In this document: piece by piece, positions 10,950-64,000 of the stretch | Numbering within the stretch: position 1 is the stretch's first letter | How the letters are laid out: each line of letters starts with the position of its first letter | Assembly (NCBI GenBank): GCA_947425245.1 | Contig: CANDYU010000001.1 | Coordinates: 63,028-127,027 of the forward strand | DNA from: an uncultured Candidatus Saccharibacteria bacterium | Lineage (GTDB): Bacteria; Patescibacteriota; Saccharimonadia; Saccharimonadales; Saccharimonadaceae | Direction of reading: 5' to 3' | DNA length: 64,000 nt | Translations under genes and position numbers: made by a program | Notes under the pieces: generated by a model | What the model saw: only the letters and a program-made list of their open reading frames with translations | The model's database searches: none | What the model was told of the DNA's origin: nothing

Positions 10950-11172
10950 CTTATCTAACCTAGTACGCCAGACAACGGATGGGGAAAGCACCCCAACGGT
11001 GATTTGGGCCGTTAGAAGGATGAATACTGTTCGAGAAAAAGAAATTGTATCCGGTTTGTCCTTGAGTGTTATCCTCATAAACAGATGCTGATGTCGCTGA
11101 CCAGTAGCGGCTATAGTTCCCCATCCGGCGTGTTGAGCCGTAATAATGAGAGACATACCCGCTACGGACGAT
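10950..11172 (-). repeat. Lectin-like (FISUMP C-terminal half) cassette E; promoterless with no start codon
   Basis: The hand-translated frame is open for 70 codons: IVRSGYVSHYYGSTRRMGNYSRYWSATSASVYEDNTQGQTGYNFFFSNSIHPSNGPNHRWGAFPIRCLAY*. It has the conserved head GTCCGTAGCGGG and the tail ...CCCCATCCGTTGTCTGGCGTACTAGGTTAGATAAG. Confidence 0.7.
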
Positions 11173-11226: not shown

Positions 11227-11249
11227 AACCCGTATAGGCTATACGGGTT
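11227..11249. repeat. Perfect 10-N-10 palindrome AACCCGTATAG-g-CTATACGGGTT
   Basis: Direct reading. Related copies lie at 11502-11524 and, degenerate, at 63522-63539. Each sits next to a cassette head. Confidence 0.7.
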
Positions 11250-11277: not shown

Positions 11278-11503
11278 CTTATCTAACCTAGTACGCCAGA
11301 CAACGGATGGGGAAACCGTACCAACGACTGTCCGGGCCGCTCGACGGGCCGACGCCGCTAGCATTGAAACCGAGGTTGTAACCTGCCAAACCAGCAGACC
11401 CATTGTAGTAAATGGGCGAAGCCGTAGGAGACCAAATGTAGCCAGAGATGCCAAGATGCCGGGCAGAGCCGTAGAGGTGAGAGACGTTCCCGCTACGGAC
11501 GAA
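11278..11503 (-). repeat. Lectin-like cassette D; promoterless
   Basis: FVRSGNVSHLYGSARHLGISGYIWSPTASPIYYNGSAGLAGYNLGFNASGVGPSSGPDSRWYGFPIRCLAY*, closely related at the nucleotide level to cassettes A, C and G. Confidence 0.7.
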
Positions 11504-11524
11504 CCCGTATAGACTATACGGGTT
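11502..11524. repeat. Palindrome AACCCGTATAG-a-CTATACGGGTT abutting the head of cassette D
   Basis: Direct reading. Confidence 0.7.
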
Positions 11525-11586
11525 GGATTTAGAATTACCTCTGTTATTTTGGTTGATTTTTCGGTTAATTGAGCGATATTGATTAC

Positions 11587-11896
11587 TTCGTCCGTAGCGG
11601 ATATGTTTATCGCACTCACAGCTCCGTTCGATATTTCGGCCTCGGCGGTTATGGCTGGTCCAGTACTACTTCCTCAATATACTATGACGGAACAACTGGA
11701 TTAGCAGATTATTACCTCACTTTCTATGTTAGCGATGTCCGCCCATCAGACGGTCCATTCTATCGTTATTATGGTTTCCCCATCCGTTGTCCACGCTCCT
11801 GACGTCGCTGACAGAAGCTCGCTCTCTCGGAAATAAAAATGTAAACATTTTTGCTTCTCTCGAGAGCTCCTCAGTTGGCGTACTAGGTTAGATAAG
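11587..11896 (+). repeat. Lectin-like cassette B (diverged), head-to-head with D; its conserved tail is split by an 84-nt insertion
   Basis: FVRSGYVYRTHSSVRYFGLGGYGWSSTTSSIYYDGTTGLADYYLTFYVSDVRPSDGPFYRYYGFPIRCPRS* with the stop at 11800-11802. The tail remnant TGGCGTACTAGGTTAGATAAG resumes at 11876. Confidence 0.7.
11792..11875 (+). repeat. 84-nt hairpin-forming insertion inside the conserved cassette tail (between ..CCGTTGTC and TGGCGTAC..)
   Basis: An almost identical insertion occupies the same position in cassette G (63746-63828). It contains the nested hairpin AGCTCGCTCTCTCGGAA..AAAATG-taaa-CATTTT.. Confidence 0.65.
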
Positions 11897-12049: not shown

Positions 12050-12147
12050 TACTGTGGGGTTGTGTGATGGAAGATTTTAGCGTCTATAGTTAATCTGGAA
12101 AGCCAAAATGGAACCGCAATCGGGGGGGCGATGTACGGTTCCATTTT

Positions 12148-12223
12148 GGTTGCGGGAGTTGGATTTGAACCAACGACCTTTTGGTTATGAGCCAAACGAG
12201 CTACCAGGCTGCTCTATCCCGCG
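12148..12223 (-). tRNA. Initiator tRNA-fMet (anticodon CAT), CCA encoded
   Basis: The reverse complement reads CGCGGGATAGAGCAGCCTGGTAGCTCGTTTGGCTCATAACCAAAAGGTCGTTGGTTCAAATCCAACTCCCGCAACCA. It has the C1xA72 mismatch and is near-identical to E. coli tRNA-fMet as I recall it. Confidence 0.9.
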
Positions 12224-12445: not shown

Positions 12446-12671
12446 CTTATCTAACCTAGTACGCCAGACAACGAATGGGGAAAGCGTTCCAACGATGGTA
12501 CGGGCCGTTCGACGGGTTGACGCCACTAGCATTGAAATTGAGGTTGTAACCTGTCAAAGCAGCAGACCCATTGTTGTAAACGGGCGAAGCCGTAGTGGAC
12601 CAATTGTAGCCATTGATGCCAAGGTTCCGGGCAGAGCCGTTGTCGCGACGGACGACCCCGCTACGGACGAA
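12446..12671 (-). repeat. Lectin-like cassette A, the most Asn/adenine-rich copy (TR-like); its head overlaps the stop codon of the upstream membrane-protein gene
   Basis: FVRSGVVRRDNGSARNLGINGYNWSTTASPVYNNGSAALTGYNLNFNASGVNPSNGPYHRWNAFPIRCLAY*, with 12 AAY codons. It is the only copy with CCCCATTCGTTGTC in place of CCCCATCCGTTGTC in the tail. Confidence 0.7.
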
Positions 12672-14316
12672 GACTGTGCTTAGGGGATGCGAAAATGATG
12701 AGAAGAAGAGGTGGAAGGAGATAGATATGGAGGGCGTTAGGCAGGCCGGCGAAGAAGTTAAGAGTAACAAGATAGGCGAGAATGAGGCTAATGAGGAGAG
12801 GGAGGGCGGGGTTGGACCAGAAGAGGGATTTTGGTGGGCGATTGGAATGGCGAAGCGGGAGGGGCGAGAAAGCCACGATCAGTACAAAGATAATAATGAT
12901 AATTCCGATGAGGCCGAGCTCGAGGAGGAGGCTGAAAAATTGGTTTTGGACGATTTCTTTGGGGCTGGTGACGCGATCGGGAAAGCGGGCGTGCATGGCA
13001 CTGCCAGCACCACCTAGGCCAACGCCGAATAGGATACTGGCGGGGGTGTCAAGCCAAGTGTCAATAGCGGTACCAGTGAGATTGAGGCGAATGTTGGTTG
13101 ATTCGGCGACGTAGCCATCGAAAATCGCAGAATCGGTGGGGGTGGGGCCGGAGGAATCTGACGATTCGGGGGGATTTTCTAAGGAGCTGGATGAGTTCGT
13201 GGGCTCAGCGTCAGATTGAGCGGAGCTGCGAGGACGAAGATCAATAAGGCCAAGTGAGAGCTGGTGAAGGGACTTGGCGGCACCGGAAAGAAAAGAGTCG
13301 TGAGTTGGGCCGATGACGGTGAAAAAGCCTTGGACAGTAAGAGTAAAGAGGAAGGAGAGGACAGGGATAAGAATGAGGGTAAGGATGGGTCGGGCAAAGC
13401 GACGACGGTAGAGGAGAAAACAGGAAAAGGCAAAGAGAGCGATGGCATAGGCATAGATTGCTCCGCGAGAGAAAGTGAGGAAGAGGGTGGAGGAAAAGAA
13501 GAAGGTAATAAGGATAAGGAGGGCGGTAGTACGCTTGGAGGAGTGGTGGCAGGGGGAGACGAGGAGGTAGAGTGCCGTCAGGGTTGGGGCGAGGAGGAGG
13601 TTGCCCATGAATTGGGGCTCGATGGCAAAACCGGAGGGGTGCGGAAAGCCGAAGGACTGAGAAACACAACCGAGACAAAGAAGGCTGGATTCGCGACCGA
13701 TACCGGCGAGGTCGAGAAAGCACTGGATCCAGCAGAAGAGGCAGACGAGTGCACTAAAGAGAAAAAATGATTTTAAGAGGAGACGGGAGAAGTTTTTGGG
13801 GGGAGTGAGGAGGGGTAGAATGTAAATTAATGAGAAAATGGCAAAGAAGAGCAGCCAAATAATGCCGGCGGTGAGAATGGCTCGGAGGGGATTGGGCGAC
13901 CAGAAGGCGGAGATAGTGGCGTAGAACGGGAATAGGGAGAGGAGAAAGAACCGGCGATCAGAAATGCCAGTAAAATTGGTGGTGAAGAGTTTTTTGAGGC
14001 TGAGGAGGGAGGATCTGGCGATACTTTGAGGATTTTTAGTACTTTGAAGACTTTTTTTACTTTGAAGTTTATCGGCACTTTGAAGATTTTTGGTACTTTG
14101 AGACCGGTTGGGGTTTTGTAGGAAAAGTGCGATGAAACTGAGAAAATCGAAGATGACTAGCCAAATGAGCGGAAGAGAGAGCTCGAAGTTCATGGTTTGG
14201 TTGGAACCGAGGCGGATTATGGGATAGTAAGAAAAGAAGAGGACGCCCGGAAGAAGGAGAATCAGGAAGAGGATGGCTTTTCTAAGGATTGATGATGGTT
14301 CTTTGGTTGGTTTCAT
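12661..14316 (-). CDS. O-antigen ligase/polymerase-like (Wzy_C family) polytopic membrane protein
   Basis: 551 aa with at least 10 TM segments and a LTFSRGAIYAYAIALF-type Wzy_C signature. It lies in the glycan locus. Confidence 0.7.
   Translation of the reverse strand: MKPTKEPSSILRKAILFLILLLPGVLFFSYYPIIRLGSNQTMNFELSLPLIWLVIFDFLSFIALFLQNPNRSQSTKNLQSADKLQSKKSLQSTKNPQSIARSSLLSLKKLFTTNFTGISDRRFFLLSLFPFYATISAFWSPNPLRAILTAGIIWLLFFAIFSLIYILPLLTPPKNFSRLLLKSFFLFSALVCLFCWIQCFLDLAGIGRESSLLCLGCVSQSFGFPHPSGFAIEPQFMGNLLLAPTLTALYLLVSPCHHSSKRTTALLILITFFFSSTLFLTFSRGAIYAYAIALFAFSCFLLYRRRFARPILTLILIPVLSFLFTLTVQGFFTVIGPTHDSFLSGAAKSLHQLSLGLIDLRPRSSAQSDAEPTNSSSSLENPPESSDSSGPTPTDSAIFDGYVAESTNIRLNLTGTAIDTWLDTPASILFGVGLGGAGSAMHARFPDRVTSPKEIVQNQFFSLLLELGLIGIIIIIFVLIVAFSPLPLRHSNRPPKSLFWSNPALPLLISLILAYLVTLNFFAGLPNALHIYLLPPLLLIIFASPKHSLRP
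14022..14110. repeat. In-frame tandem repeat of about 18 bp, roughly 5 copies (TACTTTGAAG-core), inside the ligase-like gene
   Basis: Direct reading. It encodes QSTKNLQSADKLQSKKSLQSTKNPQS. Confidence 0.65.
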
Positions 14317-15686
14317 AGTTTCGTTCCCTCCTGGGGTTTAAGGTTTTGTGATTTTGATGATTGTTCGGAAAATGCGGAGACGAGTTGGGAGATGTTGGAG
14401 CGGAAATGTTTGGAGGAGAACTTCGTGGCGGTGCTTGAGACGGCGGAACGGCTGTAGTCGGAGGATTGGAAGGATTTAAGGGCTTTCGCGAGGGATTCGG
14501 GGGTTTGTTTGGCAAAAAAGAGGCCGTTCTTCCCTGGCTGGATGATGTCTTGGCTGCCGCCGGCTTTGTAGGCGATGACTGGGCAGCCGGCAGCAAGGGC
14601 TTCAACTGCAGCGATACCGAATGGTTCGAGGCTGGGGAAAATGTAGGCGGTGGCGGATTGGAGGTATTGCGAGAGCTCTTTAGCGTCGAGCCAAGGAATA
14701 AAATGAATAAGAGGGGTGGCGAGAGTCTCGAGATGATGATGTTCAGGGCCGTCACCAATGACGACTAGGCGTTTCTGGGCCAAAATGCAACCCTTAATAG
14801 CAAGGTCGACGCGTTTCCAGGTTACCTGGCGACAAGAAATGACGAAGTATGGCTCATTTCTAGAGACCGTCGTAGGAGTGGATTCGGTACTCCTGTGGAA
14901 AAGTTGTGGAAAAAATGTGGAAAAAATGTGGATTTTTGTGGAGAAATTCGGGTTTTTGGTGGATTTCTTGTGGATTTCTTGTGGATTTTTGTGGAGAAGT
15001 TCGGATTTTTGGTGGATTTCTTGTGGATTTCTTGTGGATTTTTGTGGAGAAGTTGTGGAAAAGGGTGAGAAACGACTAATATCAACAGGGGGAGCTATGA
15101 TTTTGGCGTCGCGGTGGTAAAACTGTTTAATCTGGGCGGCGGCGTAGCTAGAAATCGTCACGAATTGGTCGGGTCGCTGGGCGGCTCGGAAATCGGCCTG
15201 GCGAAGAGGCTTAATAAGGCATTTCAGGGCGAGGCGGACGAGAGGATTCAGAAAGCCGAAACCGGGATTTTTGATGTATTGGTCGTACATTTGCCAGTAA
15301 TATTGGGTGGGGACATGGCAATAACAGATGTGATAATTGGTCTTCACAGCCTTCGCCTCAGCACCCGTGACCGAGATGACTAGGTCGTAGTGGCTGAGGT
15401 CGAGATGCGAGAAATAGAGAGCCCGAAGAGGGCCAAGGAGCTTGCGAAGGCAGGCAGGAAAGAGGTTGAGCCAACCGGTGCGGACGATGGCTGTATTAAA
15501 CCAGGCGATTTTCTTGGGGCGATATTGAGAAGTGTAAATTGGGGCGTCGGGATACATCTGGTGTAGTTCGAGGAGGACTTTTTCGGCACCGCCAGGGGTA
15601 GTGAGCCAGTCACAGACGAGAGCGATGGAGGGGTCGGGGGTTGATTTTTTGGCAGTTTTGGTCGTTTTAGAGCGAGATTTGGACAT
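14313..15686 (-). CDS. Glycosyltransferase family 4 (GT-B fold) with a repeat-encoded insert in the interdomain linker
   Basis: N-terminal LVCDWLTTPGGAEKV and C-terminal EPFGIAAVEALAAGCPVIA motifs. The start overlaps the downstream gene (ATGA). Confidence 0.8.
   Translation of the reverse strand: MSKSRSKTTKTAKKSTPDPSIALVCDWLTTPGGAEKVLLELHQMYPDAPIYTSQYRPKKIAWFNTAIVRTGWLNLFPACLRKLLGPLRALYFSHLDLSHYDLVISVTGAEAKAVKTNYHICYCHVPTQYYWQMYDQYIKNPGFGFLNPLVRLALKCLIKPLRQADFRAAQRPDQFVTISSYAAAQIKQFYHRDAKIIAPPVDISRFSPFSTTSPQKSTRNPQEIHQKSELLHKNPQEIHKKSTKNPNFSTKIHIFSTFFPQLFHRSTESTPTTVSRNEPYFVISCRQVTWKRVDLAIKGCILAQKRLVVIGDGPEHHHLETLATPLIHFIPWLDAKELSQYLQSATAYIFPSLEPFGIAAVEALAAGCPVIAYKAGGSQDIIQPGKNGLFFAKQTPESLAKALKSFQSSDYSRSAVSSTATKFSSKHFRSNISQLVSAFSEQSSKSQNLKPQEGTKL
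14894..15062. repeat. Array of 14 same-orientation DnaA-box-like 9-mers ((T/G)GTGGA(A/T/G)(A/T)(A/T)) with 10-11 bp phasing, including a 53-bp higher-order duplication, in frame within the GT4 gene
   Basis: Box starts read at 14894, 14905, 14916, 14927, 14937, 14958, 14969, 14980, 14990, 15011, 15022, 15033, 15043 and 15054. Confidence 0.7.
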
Positions 15687-17137: not shown

Positions 17138-17265
17138 CTTTATTACTTCGCAAGCTTCTTCTCGGACCGGATGTCACGCCATCCCGTCGTTACGGGTGGC
17201 GTGCGTCCTACGCCCTCCCTCGTAAGGTCCGGGAGTTCCTCTAAGAAGCTCATGAAGTAATAAAG
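17138..17265. repeat. Long imperfect hairpin element (about 128 nt) in the divergent wbaP-like/galE promoter region
   Basis: CTTTATTACTTC/GAAGTAATAAAG and AGCTTCTT/AAGAAGCT form the outer stems. The core TCGGACCGGATGTC...GAGTTCCTCT is shared with the 59497-59859 element. The inner hairpin is CCCGT-CGTT-ACGGG. Confidence 0.55.
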
Positions 17266-59491: not shown

Positions 59492-59496
59492 TATAA

Positions 59497-59859
59497 GGAT
59501 ATCCCACTAGAATTAATATAAGTATACTCCCAGAGTTTTGGTTACTTGTTTTCGGACCGGATGTCGTGTCGTCCCGTCTGACCGAAGGTCAGAACTCCGG
59601 GCGTCGATTCGGAAGCAGGAATGTTACACATTCCTGCTTCACTCATCTCCTGGGAGAAGCGTCACGGGCGACACGCAACCTACGACCAACGCGACTAAAG
59701 TCGCTACCAGCTGGGCGTCACCTCAAGATAAAGAATGCGAAGCATTCTTTATCTATTCGGTTCCTACGGCTGGACGGTCGTAAGCTCCGAGAGTTCCTCT
59801 AACAAGCAACCAAAACTCTGGGAAGATACTTATACCAATCCTAGTTCTGGTGGGATACC
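59497..59859. repeat. Giant imperfect hairpin element (about 363 nt) between the pilin operon and cassette C
   Basis: The outer arms of about 55 bp (GGATATCCCAC..CCCAGAGTTTTGGTTACTTGTT and its complement) enclose several perfect internal hairpins, e.g. GAAGCAGGAATG-ttaca-CATTCCTGCTTC. The core ends TCGGACCGGATGTC and GAGTTCCTCT are shared with 17138-17265. Confidence 0.55.
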
Positions 59860-59863
59860 TAAA

Positions 59864-60089
59864 CTTATCTAACCTAGTACGCCAGACAACGGATGGGGAA
59901 AGCGTACCAACGACGGTACGGGCCGTTCGACGGGCTGACGCCACTAGCATCGAAACCGAGGCTGTAACCTGCCAAACTAGCAGACCCATCGTTGTAAACG
60001 GGCGAAGCCGTAGTCGACCAATAGTAGCCATTGACGCCAAGATACCGGGCAGAGCCGTTGTCGCGACGGACGACCCCGCTACGGACGAA
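59864..60089 (-). repeat. Lectin-like cassette C; promoterless, located after the hsp20 terminator
   Basis: FVRSGVVRRDNGSARYLGVNGYYWSTTASPVYNDGSASLAGYSLGFDASGVSPSNGPYRRWYAFPIRCLAY*. It differs from cassette A at 17 of 216 nt. Confidence 0.7.
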
Positions 60090-63264: not shown

Positions 63265-63300
63265 CATATAGAATATCCTAATGCTATGTTTGTTCTTACT

Positions 63301-63521
63301 CTAACCTAGTACGCCAGACAACGGATGGGGTTACCACGCATGCGGTATGCTGGACCATCGGATGTAAAAGATGAGGTCGAGATGAAGAAGTAATATGCGG
63401 AATTTGTAATTTTGACACCATCATCATAAAGCGGAGAGGCTGTAGTTGACCAGTTATAACCGCCATTTCCACTTCTCCAAGCTGCTCCTAAACCTAAATC
63501 TAGGACCCCGCTACGGACGAA
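63301..63521 (-). repeat. Lectin-like cassette F (diverged)
   Basis: FVRSGVLDLGLGAAWRSGNGGYNWSTTASPLYDDGVKITNSAYYFFISTSSFTSDGPAYRMRGNPIRCLAY*. Confidence 0.7.
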
Positions 63522-63540: not shown

Positions 63541-63846
63541 CTTGTCCGTAGCGGGCACATCTATCGCTACCTCGGCTCTGCCCGGTATCTTGGCTTTCGT
63601 GGCTACTATTGGTCGTCTACAGCTTCGCCCGTTTTCCACGATGGGTCTGCTGGTTTGGCAGTTTACGGCCTCGATTTTAATGCTAGTGGCGTCAACCCGT
63701 CGTATGACCCAGACGCTCGTTGGTACGGTTTCCCCATCCGTTGTCCACGTTCCTGACGTCGCTGACAGAAGCTCGCTCTCTCGGAAATAAAAATGTAAAC
63801 ATTTTTACTTCCGAGAGAGCTCCTCAGTTGGCGTACTAGGTTAGAT
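63541..63846 (+). repeat. Lectin-like cassette G, head-to-head with F across a 19-nt gap; its tail is split by an 83-nt insertion (63746-63828)
   Basis: LVRSGHIYRYLGSARYLGFRGYYWSSTASPVFHDGSAGLAVYGLDFNASGVNPSYDPDARWYGFPIRCPRS*. Confidence 0.7.
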
Positions 63847-64000
63847 GGCTAAACACACAAGCTGAATACACACTCCCACTATTCAACGCATAATATGAAA
63901 ATGTAGGTGGTCTCAAAAGTACCAGGATAATTAAATTGACTCGATGCACTGCCTATATATTTAGTGTTCAATAAATCCCGTTCTCAAATCTGTCAGATTG

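Follow-up and report, generated by a model that had tools for sequence, protein, structure and literature searches.

The DNA analysed here, a 64-kb stretch referred to below as the window, is the chromosome region around oriC of a mouse-gut Saccharibacteria genome and carries dnaA, dnaN, recF, a T4SS-like cluster with T4SS_pilin genes, and glycosyltransferases. It also contains seven copies of a 216-nt module, of which the genome as a whole has at least 13; at least six further copies were found on contigs of the same strain, namely H and a head-only copy just beyond the right end of the window, and I, J, K and M about 50 kb upstream of it. The module is bracketed by a 14-nt head and a tail of about 38 nt, both of which are invariant. 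The head of all seven window copies is TTCGTCCGTAGCGG, with zero to two mismatches, and their 3′ end reads TTTCCCCATCCGTTGTC TGGCGTACTAGGTTAGATAAG; head and tail motifs each occur seven times in the window, against about 1 and 0.02 occurrences, respectively, expected by chance.

Cassette A occupies positions 12446–12671 on the minus strand, with the head TTCGTCCGTAGCGG at 12658–12671 and the conserved tail at 12446–12466. Its body consists of 68 codons running from FVRSG to FPIRC, followed by LAY and a stop codon at 12456–12458, and the minus-strand translation of 12456–12671 is FVRSGVVRRDNGSARNLGINGYNWSTTASPVYNNGSAALTGYNLNFNASGVNPSNGPYHRWNAFPIRCLAY with the terminal stop. Two other minus-strand copies are close to it, C (59864–60089), which lies directly downstream of the Hsp20 terminator, and D (11278–11503). 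G (63541–63849, plus strand) has its body at 63541–63745 and its ORF end, FPIRCPRS*, at 63756, and about 83 nt inserted at 63746–63828 divide its tail, so that the displaced tail part is found at 63829–63849. The same arrangement is seen in E (11587–11896, plus strand), an old paralogue with a TTG-initiated 77-aa ORF at 11569–11802, in which about 84 nt (11792–11875) separate the displaced tail (11876–11896) from the body. B (10950–11172, minus strand) is another old paralogue, shorter by one codon and with the head ATCGTCCGTAGCGGG. F (63296–63521, minus strand) is the most divergent copy, with about 50% nucleotide difference; frame, head and tail are retained, and it stands head-to-head with G with 19 nt between them. 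Close copies in the following are A, C, D, G and K, the allelic versions Ax and Cx of A and C, and copies from related genomes.

Variation at adenines

The earlier note on this DNA, made by eye, had reported 17 differences between A and C, most of them at adenines of A, and had read this pattern as the signature of DGR mutagenic homing. Gapless alignment of the reverse complements of 12456–12671 and 59874–60089 confirmed the 17 differences in 216 nt, 12 of which fall at coding-strand adenines of A (nine A>G and three A>T), the remaining five being at columns 48, 75, 112, 113 and 198. With 40 adenines in the 216 nt of A, the enrichment gives a one-sided p of 1.1e-6 in the Fisher test that the note had proposed. 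When A is used as the reference for other copies, 16 of 31 differences in D, 18 of 40 in G and 17 of 32 in Cx are located at its adenines (p = 1e-5 to 1e-6); the reverse direction, N>A, is not enriched in the comparisons of A with C, D, G and Cx. The descriptive claims of the note were also reproduced: A has 12 AAY codons (four in C), the codons quoted for A/C/D/G are correct (codon 20, AAT/AAT/TCT/CGT; codon 45, AAT/GGT/GGT/GAT; codon 59, CAT/CGT/AGT/GCT), and A alone among the seven window copies has CCCCATTCG in place of CCCCATCCG in its tail. A per-codon table likewise showed that the variable codons change at positions 1 and 2 and that the third position stays C or T.

The variation is concentrated in about 20 hypervariable codons (6, 8, 10, 11, 16, 19, 20, 23, 26, 33, 34, 43, 45, 47, 52, 55, 58, 59 and 62), with up to four bases at positions 1 and 2 and a third position fixed as C or T; the other codons show ordinary third-position drift. 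Among the variable first- and second-position columns, 38 of 43 keep A in at least one of six copies, A being the rarest base. The pN/pS ratio (Nei-Gojobori) is 2–6 in the hypervariable codons, and infinite for C versus D. In the framework codons it is 0.2–0.4, with pS values of 0.7–0.85 (saturated) when the old paralogues E, I, J, M and H are compared. The framework codons are thus under purifying selection, and the cassettes are constrained as coding sequence.

The 5′ 45 nt (codons 1–15), including the otherwise hypervariable codons 6–11, are shared by A and C without a difference, and 3′ of this block the two differ almost only at adenines, which is what 3′-anchored partial homing would produce. 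Editing of the deaminase type, A>G, was considered and rejected, since A>T and A>C are also common. The homing signature was accordingly borne out as far as the variation itself is concerned, the adenine-specific, stop-avoiding AAY>NNY pattern being far beyond chance; judged by these alignments, the adenine-mutagenesis signature typical of DGRs is real.

Reconstructed template

A putative template was built from ten close copies by assigning A to every variable first- or second-position column in which A occurs. The result, which reads FVRSGNINHNNGSARNLGINGYNWSTTTSPVYNNGSTDLTGYNLNFNASDVNPSNGPNNRWNGFPIRC, is AAY-rich, with DNA stretches TTCGTCCGTAGCGGGAACATCAATCACAACAAC...AACCTCAATTTCAATGC...CCGAACAATCGTTGGAACGG, and its protein contains NLNFNASGVNPSNGPNNRWNGFP, which is also present in Asn-rich homologues of other species, e.g. 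P0056. The close copies differ mainly at about 41 first and second codon positions, each of which keeps adenine in at least one copy. Cassette A, with its 12 AAY codons, is the least-mutated of them and has kept 28 of the 41 putative template adenines, the other copies 13–22. Differences from the reconstruction, which is partly circular, lie at template adenines in 75–93% of cases per close copy and in 60% for K; the non-adenine differences amount to 2–9 per close copy (2–3 in C and D) and to 17 in K. A physical TR was found neither in the window nor in the fetched DNA.

Allelic cassettes

An allele of cassette A, Ax, was found by looking up the small ORF beside A; it is present on seven contigs (L037–L044) from several mouse-gut samples and assembly GCA_948776555.1. 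Ax differs from A at 30 of 216 nt, against 5 of 546 nt in the flanks (0 of 390 on the right and 5 of 156 on the left; p = 6e-13), and 12 of the 30 differences are at A's adenines. It reads FVRSGLVARDDGSARHLGLNGYNWSTTTSPVYNNGSAGLTGYVLYFNANDVYPSGGPSNRWVGFPIRC, has NNY-type changes at the same codons as the other close copies, and ends in the canonical C tail CCCCATCCG, lacking the tail base of A that the earlier note had likened to IMH*. The C locus of another strain (Cx) likewise differs at 29 of 214 nt versus 2 of 776 in its flank (p = 3e-18).

The template-like asymmetry is not unique to A: with Ax, K or L28, a copy from another Saccharibacteria genome, taken as 'template', p values of 3e-6 to 0.012, mostly at or below 1e-4, were obtained, and any copy retaining many adenines will have a template-like appearance. 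Moreover, codons 6–10 of A (GTC GTC CGT CGC GAC) themselves look mutated in comparison with the AAY-rich family consensus; the differences that D, G, Cx, K and Ax show from A in these codons involve non-adenine bases, so that none of these copies can derive from it. The suggestion of the earlier note that A is the template (TR) is not supported, since the A locus has itself been rewritten between strains, and the caveat in the note, which denied A the role of sole present-day template, was right. As sister strains carry a differently mutated cassette at the same locus, A is a target-type copy and simply the one that kept most template adenines.

The allelic replacements also include changes of another kind. 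A and Ax have eight third-position differences, and C and Cx five, plus several private synonymous changes; these 5–8 third-position or non-adenine changes are unexplained by adenine-only mutagenesis from one template. Some of the third-position variants of Ax and Cx are common to K and D, others are private, and A has fewer differences (26) from a cassette of another species, L028, than from its own allele Ax, where there are 30. Within a strain, the cassettes are stable: contig L012 is 100% identical to the window over 9149 nt and Ax is the same in its seven contigs except for 1 nt, so that independent samples of one strain give no indication that rapid variation is under way. At window position 63707, in cassette G, an A/G change (GAC versus GGC) is the sole difference in 3965 nt between the window and NODE_1551 of sample ERZ14425225; the other copies have G at this position.

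Two further differences between the lineages were noted near A. Synteny with the sister lineage stops at about 12300, where unrelated sequence replaces the tRNA-Met gene and cassettes E, D and B (compared with L037 1–346). In the adjoining O-antigen-ligase-like Wzy_C gene (ORF 12661–14316), the segment at about 13063–13215 shows dense inter-strain substitutions and indels, the sequence on either side being 0–0.7% divergent.

Encoded domain and reading frame

The window peptides gave no direct Pfam or NCBIfam match. A profile of the family retrieved 4457 proteins, several of which (P0168, P0110, P0078, P0081 and P0238) match PF09603 Fib_succ_major at about positions 127–187 and PF07603 Lcl_C (DUF1566), the match of P0238 exceeding the curated threshold. 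By this profile match, the cassette encodes the C-terminal third of a Fib_succ_major/Lcl_C (C-type-lectin-like) domain. Variable regions of the DUF1566/Fib_succ_major type form the CLec2 class of DGR targets (Wu et al., PMC5758913), so that the view of the cassettes as DGR-type targets agrees with the lectin-fold class to which they belong. An AlphaFold model of the cassette alone had a mean pLDDT of 49.7 and no confident fold, which fits one third of a domain; a stand-alone mini-protein was rejected on this value and on a profile search of the PDB that gave no match.

No in-frame ATG, GTG or TTG precedes the head in C, D and G. The only upstream in-frame start of A is a TTG 33 codons upstream, which lies within the Wzy_C ORF and is not usable; the stop codon of this ORF sits in the head of A. 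The N-terminal part of the Fib_succ_major domain was not found by tblastn in the window or the fetched loci, and apparent upstream extensions of H and K turned out to be alignment run-through across stop codons. The close homologues are almost all orphans of 65–209 aa, and searches for full-length relatives via P0133 and P0149 returned only proteins of at most 209 aa. No long protein ending in FVRSG...FPIRC is found among the close homologues; the long profile matches either are distantly related multi-domain Fib_succ_major proteins or arise by reading through cassette arrays. An expression locus with a full-length gene was found neither in the window, which has no extra head, nor among the close homologues. 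No promoter-like sites were detected beside the window copies; for K, an 11/12 match to a promoter lies 41 nt upstream of the head, and a tRNA-Pro gene follows the cassette 84 nt downstream on the same strand.

Tandem cassette arrays are present in some relatives (L030, L031, P0095 and P0097). In P0110, P0117, P0121 and P0124, which are Bacteroidetes-like by sequence reading only, long ORFs read through 6–10 tandem FFPASGYR...GFPVRCVQAS units covering the same part of the domain; the first unit of P0117 is Asn-rich and its later units are diversified. Arrays of this kind may be widespread. An alternative genetic code was dismissed, the long ORFs being intact under table 11.

Genomic surroundings

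Heads often face each other across the perfect palindrome CCCGTATAGnCTATACGGG, with or without a 64-nt spacer, as in the pairs D/E, F/G, M/J, and H with the head-only copy. The D/E inverted-head junction (11504–11586) consists of the perfect palindrome CCCGTATAGACTATACGGG (11504–11522) and the 64-nt spacer, and this same junction is duplicated beyond the window (L001 4503–4618, H and the head-only copy). A second palindrome copy, CCCGTATAGGCTATACGGG, is located at 11229–11247, downstream of the tail of D and upstream of the spacer and head of B. The perfect 19-nt palindrome is thus found 5′ of heads, and 3′ of D only. Rfam found only tRNA, and a structured RNA or intron in the head and palindrome was therefore rejected.

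A tRNA-Met gene (12147–12223, minus strand) lies between E and A, and most cassette loci are within about 250 nt of a tRNA gene (rough p of about 2e-5, assuming 45 tRNA genes and a 0.9-Mb genome). Cassettes were seen about 60–250 nt from tRNA genes in several genomes, in all relative orientations; the loci concerned are window 12147–12223, L001 3984–4076, L006 9878–9953 and 16503–16578, L027, L032 and L035. The proximity could reflect an integration hotspot, a tolerated intergenic site or co-transcription. The tail insertions of E and G are a common element of about 85 nt with a hairpin, placed after CGTTGTC, through which the ORF end becomes FPIRCPRS*. Different sequences occur at the same point of the tail in the cassettes of other species, so that this point may be an insertion hotspot.

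Search for a retroelement

A motif scan of the window and the fetched loci gave no YxDD-type ORF, Pfam found no RVT family among 30 window ORFs, and the precomputed Pfam annotation of the flanking loci contained no RT. In tblastn searches over 297 kb of partly overlapping DNA, BPP-1 Brt gave only matches with E > 3 and BPP-1 Avd only matches with E ≥ 0.7. RT and Avd are thus absent from the 12 kb to the left and the 51 kb to the right of A, and neither was found in the 9 kb past the right end of the window, in a 20-kb part of this contig lying 50 kb upstream, or beside the cassettes of six other genomes. The DNA examined represents less than about 15% of the genome, and the absence of an RT applies to this DNA only.

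Three Asn-rich homologues with the look of a TR (P0065, P0056 and P0050) were followed to their contigs, where no RT was present beside them. Their odd tails proved to be another conserved tail, GGTGCCGATCTTT, which is species-specific and is read in three frames. This tail replaces TGTyTGG...TAG in some cassettes of other Saccharibacteria-like genomes (L027 6236–6262 and 7315–7341; L034 814–840; L035 6216–6242), and gene callers translate it as RFGADL, GCRSF or VPIFE. A scan for head...tail units in a genome contig collection yielded one cassette, in another Saccharibacteria metagenome-assembled genome, and a chance match; three short loci were obtained from a metagenome contig collection and none, by DNA or protein pattern, from a viral one.

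Discussion

In a DGR as it is understood, the 3′ end of a complete gene adjoining the RT, or of a few such genes, is rewritten from one template. The cassettes resemble DGRs of the CLec2 class in their adenine-specific AAY>NNY variation with avoidance of stop codons, in a VR formed by the last 60–70 residues of a lectin-like domain and directly followed by a stop and a conserved 3′ block, and in the presence of several dispersed copies per genome. The nearest known counterparts are DGRs that have CLec2-class VRs and several remote targets, exemplified by the Legionella LdtA class and by the DGR of Treponema denticola with its seven non-adjacent targets (PMC5758913). Unlike such targets, however, the cassettes are devoid of a start codon and of the N-terminal two thirds of the domain and so are not the 3′ ends of complete genes, by which a defining DGR feature is broken. 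Furthermore, the tens of kb around the cassettes yielded no RT, Avd or TR, the differences between cassettes are not exclusively at adenines, and the copies have tRNA genes as neighbours and form head-to-head pairs that include a palindrome.

In other respects the family is similar to Neisseria pilE/pilS, Borrelia vlsE/vls and the Anaplasma msp2 pseudogenes: there are many promoter-less, 5′-truncated cassettes with conserved flanks and a variable centre, an open frame and a framework under purifying selection, clustered in both orientations, forming tandem arrays in the relatives mentioned above (L030, L031, P0095 and P0097), and replaced as a whole between strains. In contrast to those systems, a full-length expression locus was not found in the window or in protein databases, and the variation within the cassettes carries an adenine mutational signature and is not only recombinational. 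Shufflons (R64 pilV, the phage Mu G segment, Bacteroides intragenic shufflons) also have C-terminal segments in both orientations bounded by a short conserved inverted repeat, which here would be the head (D/E and F/G); the window, however, has no recombinase (Pfam on 30 ORFs) and no constant 5′ gene part reading into a head, and no inversion is seen between samples, L012 and L001 being colinear with the window. No published description of orphan cassettes of this kind in Saccharibacteria was found.

The reading favoured here, with a probability of roughly 0.6, is that the cassettes are orphan targets of a trans-acting DGR located elsewhere in the genome, A being one of these targets. A single AAY-rich template would have been the source of each copy, through reverse transcription that is error-prone at template adenines, the RT and the true template repeat presumably residing elsewhere in the genome and acting in trans, and the conserved tail would serve as a putative homing (IMH-like) site. 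Rewriting is likely to be infrequent, the cassettes being stable within the samples of one strain and replaced between strains, and recombination between paralogous cassettes would add non-adenine differences; rare rewriting and paralogue recombination together would explain the non-adenine and synonymous differences between alleles, the closeness of A to a copy of another species, and the stability within a strain. Since the start codon and the N-terminal two thirds are missing from most of the cassettes, although their framework is under selection, they would probably be expressed only once they are moved to an expression site or fused with one.

Cassettes written by a DGR elsewhere are possibly also archived. 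That Saccharibacteria maintain an archive of start-less lectin cassettes, written in trans by a DGR and used as a stored repertoire that is recombined into an expression site or translated by some other route, can be proposed tentatively at best; by analogy, the idea may extend to some Bacteroidetes with tandem arrays. A related possibility is that the dispersed copies arose by retro-copying of the template RNA and insertion close to tRNA genes.

A different history would be that the signature is a fossil, the RT having been lost from the lineage and the strains differing only through gene conversion or replacement among resident paralogues, which would then be an archive like pilS, vls or msp2, or simply decaying fragments. 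The RT not found in about 297 kb, the eight and five third-position differences of A/Ax and C/Cx with their private synonymous changes, the greater closeness of A to L028 (26 differences) than to Ax (30), and the stability across the samples of one strain speak for this history. Against it, the shared 5′ block of A and C is followed by differences almost only at adenines, with one synonymous change in the framework, indicating that mutagenesis is more recent than the divergence of the paralogues; C and D have merely 2–3 non-adenine differences from the reconstructed template, and the search for the RT covered less than about 15% of the genome. A fossil signature is accordingly regarded as rather unlikely. 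It is far less probable that no retroelement was ever involved and that the NNY pattern arose by diversifying selection on ligand-contact residues together with gene conversion among paralogues. Cassette systems free of an RT do exist in Neisseria, Borrelia and Anaplasma (reviewed in PMC4534519), and Tyr, Asp, Gly and Ser are favoured at the variable sites, as in other binding surfaces; selection of this kind is nevertheless difficult to reconcile with positions 1 and 2 being saturated while the same codons show zero third-position change, with the retention of A, the rarest base, in 38 of 43 variable columns, and with Asn-rich versions that are conserved across species. The occurrence of all three replacement bases also excludes a deaminase as the source of the pattern.

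Least credible of all is the proposal that cassette A is the TR, C and the others being VRs and CCCCATTCG the IMH*. A has the most adenines and 12 AAY codons, 12 of its 17 differences from C lie at its own adenines, codons 1–15 are identical as if C had been copied from A, the T in its tail is unique to it, and it is start-less and located in the 3′ UTR of the Wzy_C gene, where it is probably transcribed. This proposal is largely refuted by the sister strains, which carry a differently mutated cassette with the canonical tail at the A locus. It also fails to accommodate the non-adenine differences of D, G, Cx, K and Ax in codons 6–10 and the absence of RT and Avd within 12 kb to the left and 51 kb to the right, and Ax, K and L28 are equally template-like in their asymmetry.

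The DGR-type signature is thus placed here on at least 13 dispersed gene fragments that are untranslatable as they stand; purifying selection nonetheless acts on their frameworks, and the exchange between strains involves whole cassettes. Should the fragments be functional, the surface-variation system of Saccharibacteria would be larger than, and differently organised from, any described for them; as these bacteria are tiny episymbionts needing attachment to host bacteria, such a system could bear on host range. An archive, if it exists, would combine retroelement hypermutation with cassette-based antigenic variation. Programs that find DGRs by starting from an RT would miss these cassette loci.

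Other features of the region

Directly downstream of C, a 366-nt element (59495–59860, minus strand) has a folding energy of -191 kcal/mol (z = -16 versus shuffles), a closing stem of about 55 bp and no Rfam match. Shorter relatives are located at 17140–17260 and, after a cassette, at about L031 870–1020; between the window and L031, the closing stem shows one compensatory change from G-C to A-T. The element could be either a structured RNA or a mobile palindromic element. Beside the tRNA-Pro gene and cassette K, L006 15438–16514 encodes a large serine recombinase (Recombinase and Zn_ribbon_recom), and REP_ORF2-G2P, DNA methylase and PDDEXK genes are also present there, which suggests an integrated element. 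Finally, the Glycos_transf_1 ORF (14313–15686) contains tandem imperfect repeats of 21, 32 and 53 nt (TGTGGAnnnnTT...) at 14916–15074, which encode a repetitive KNPQEIHKKST-like stretch.
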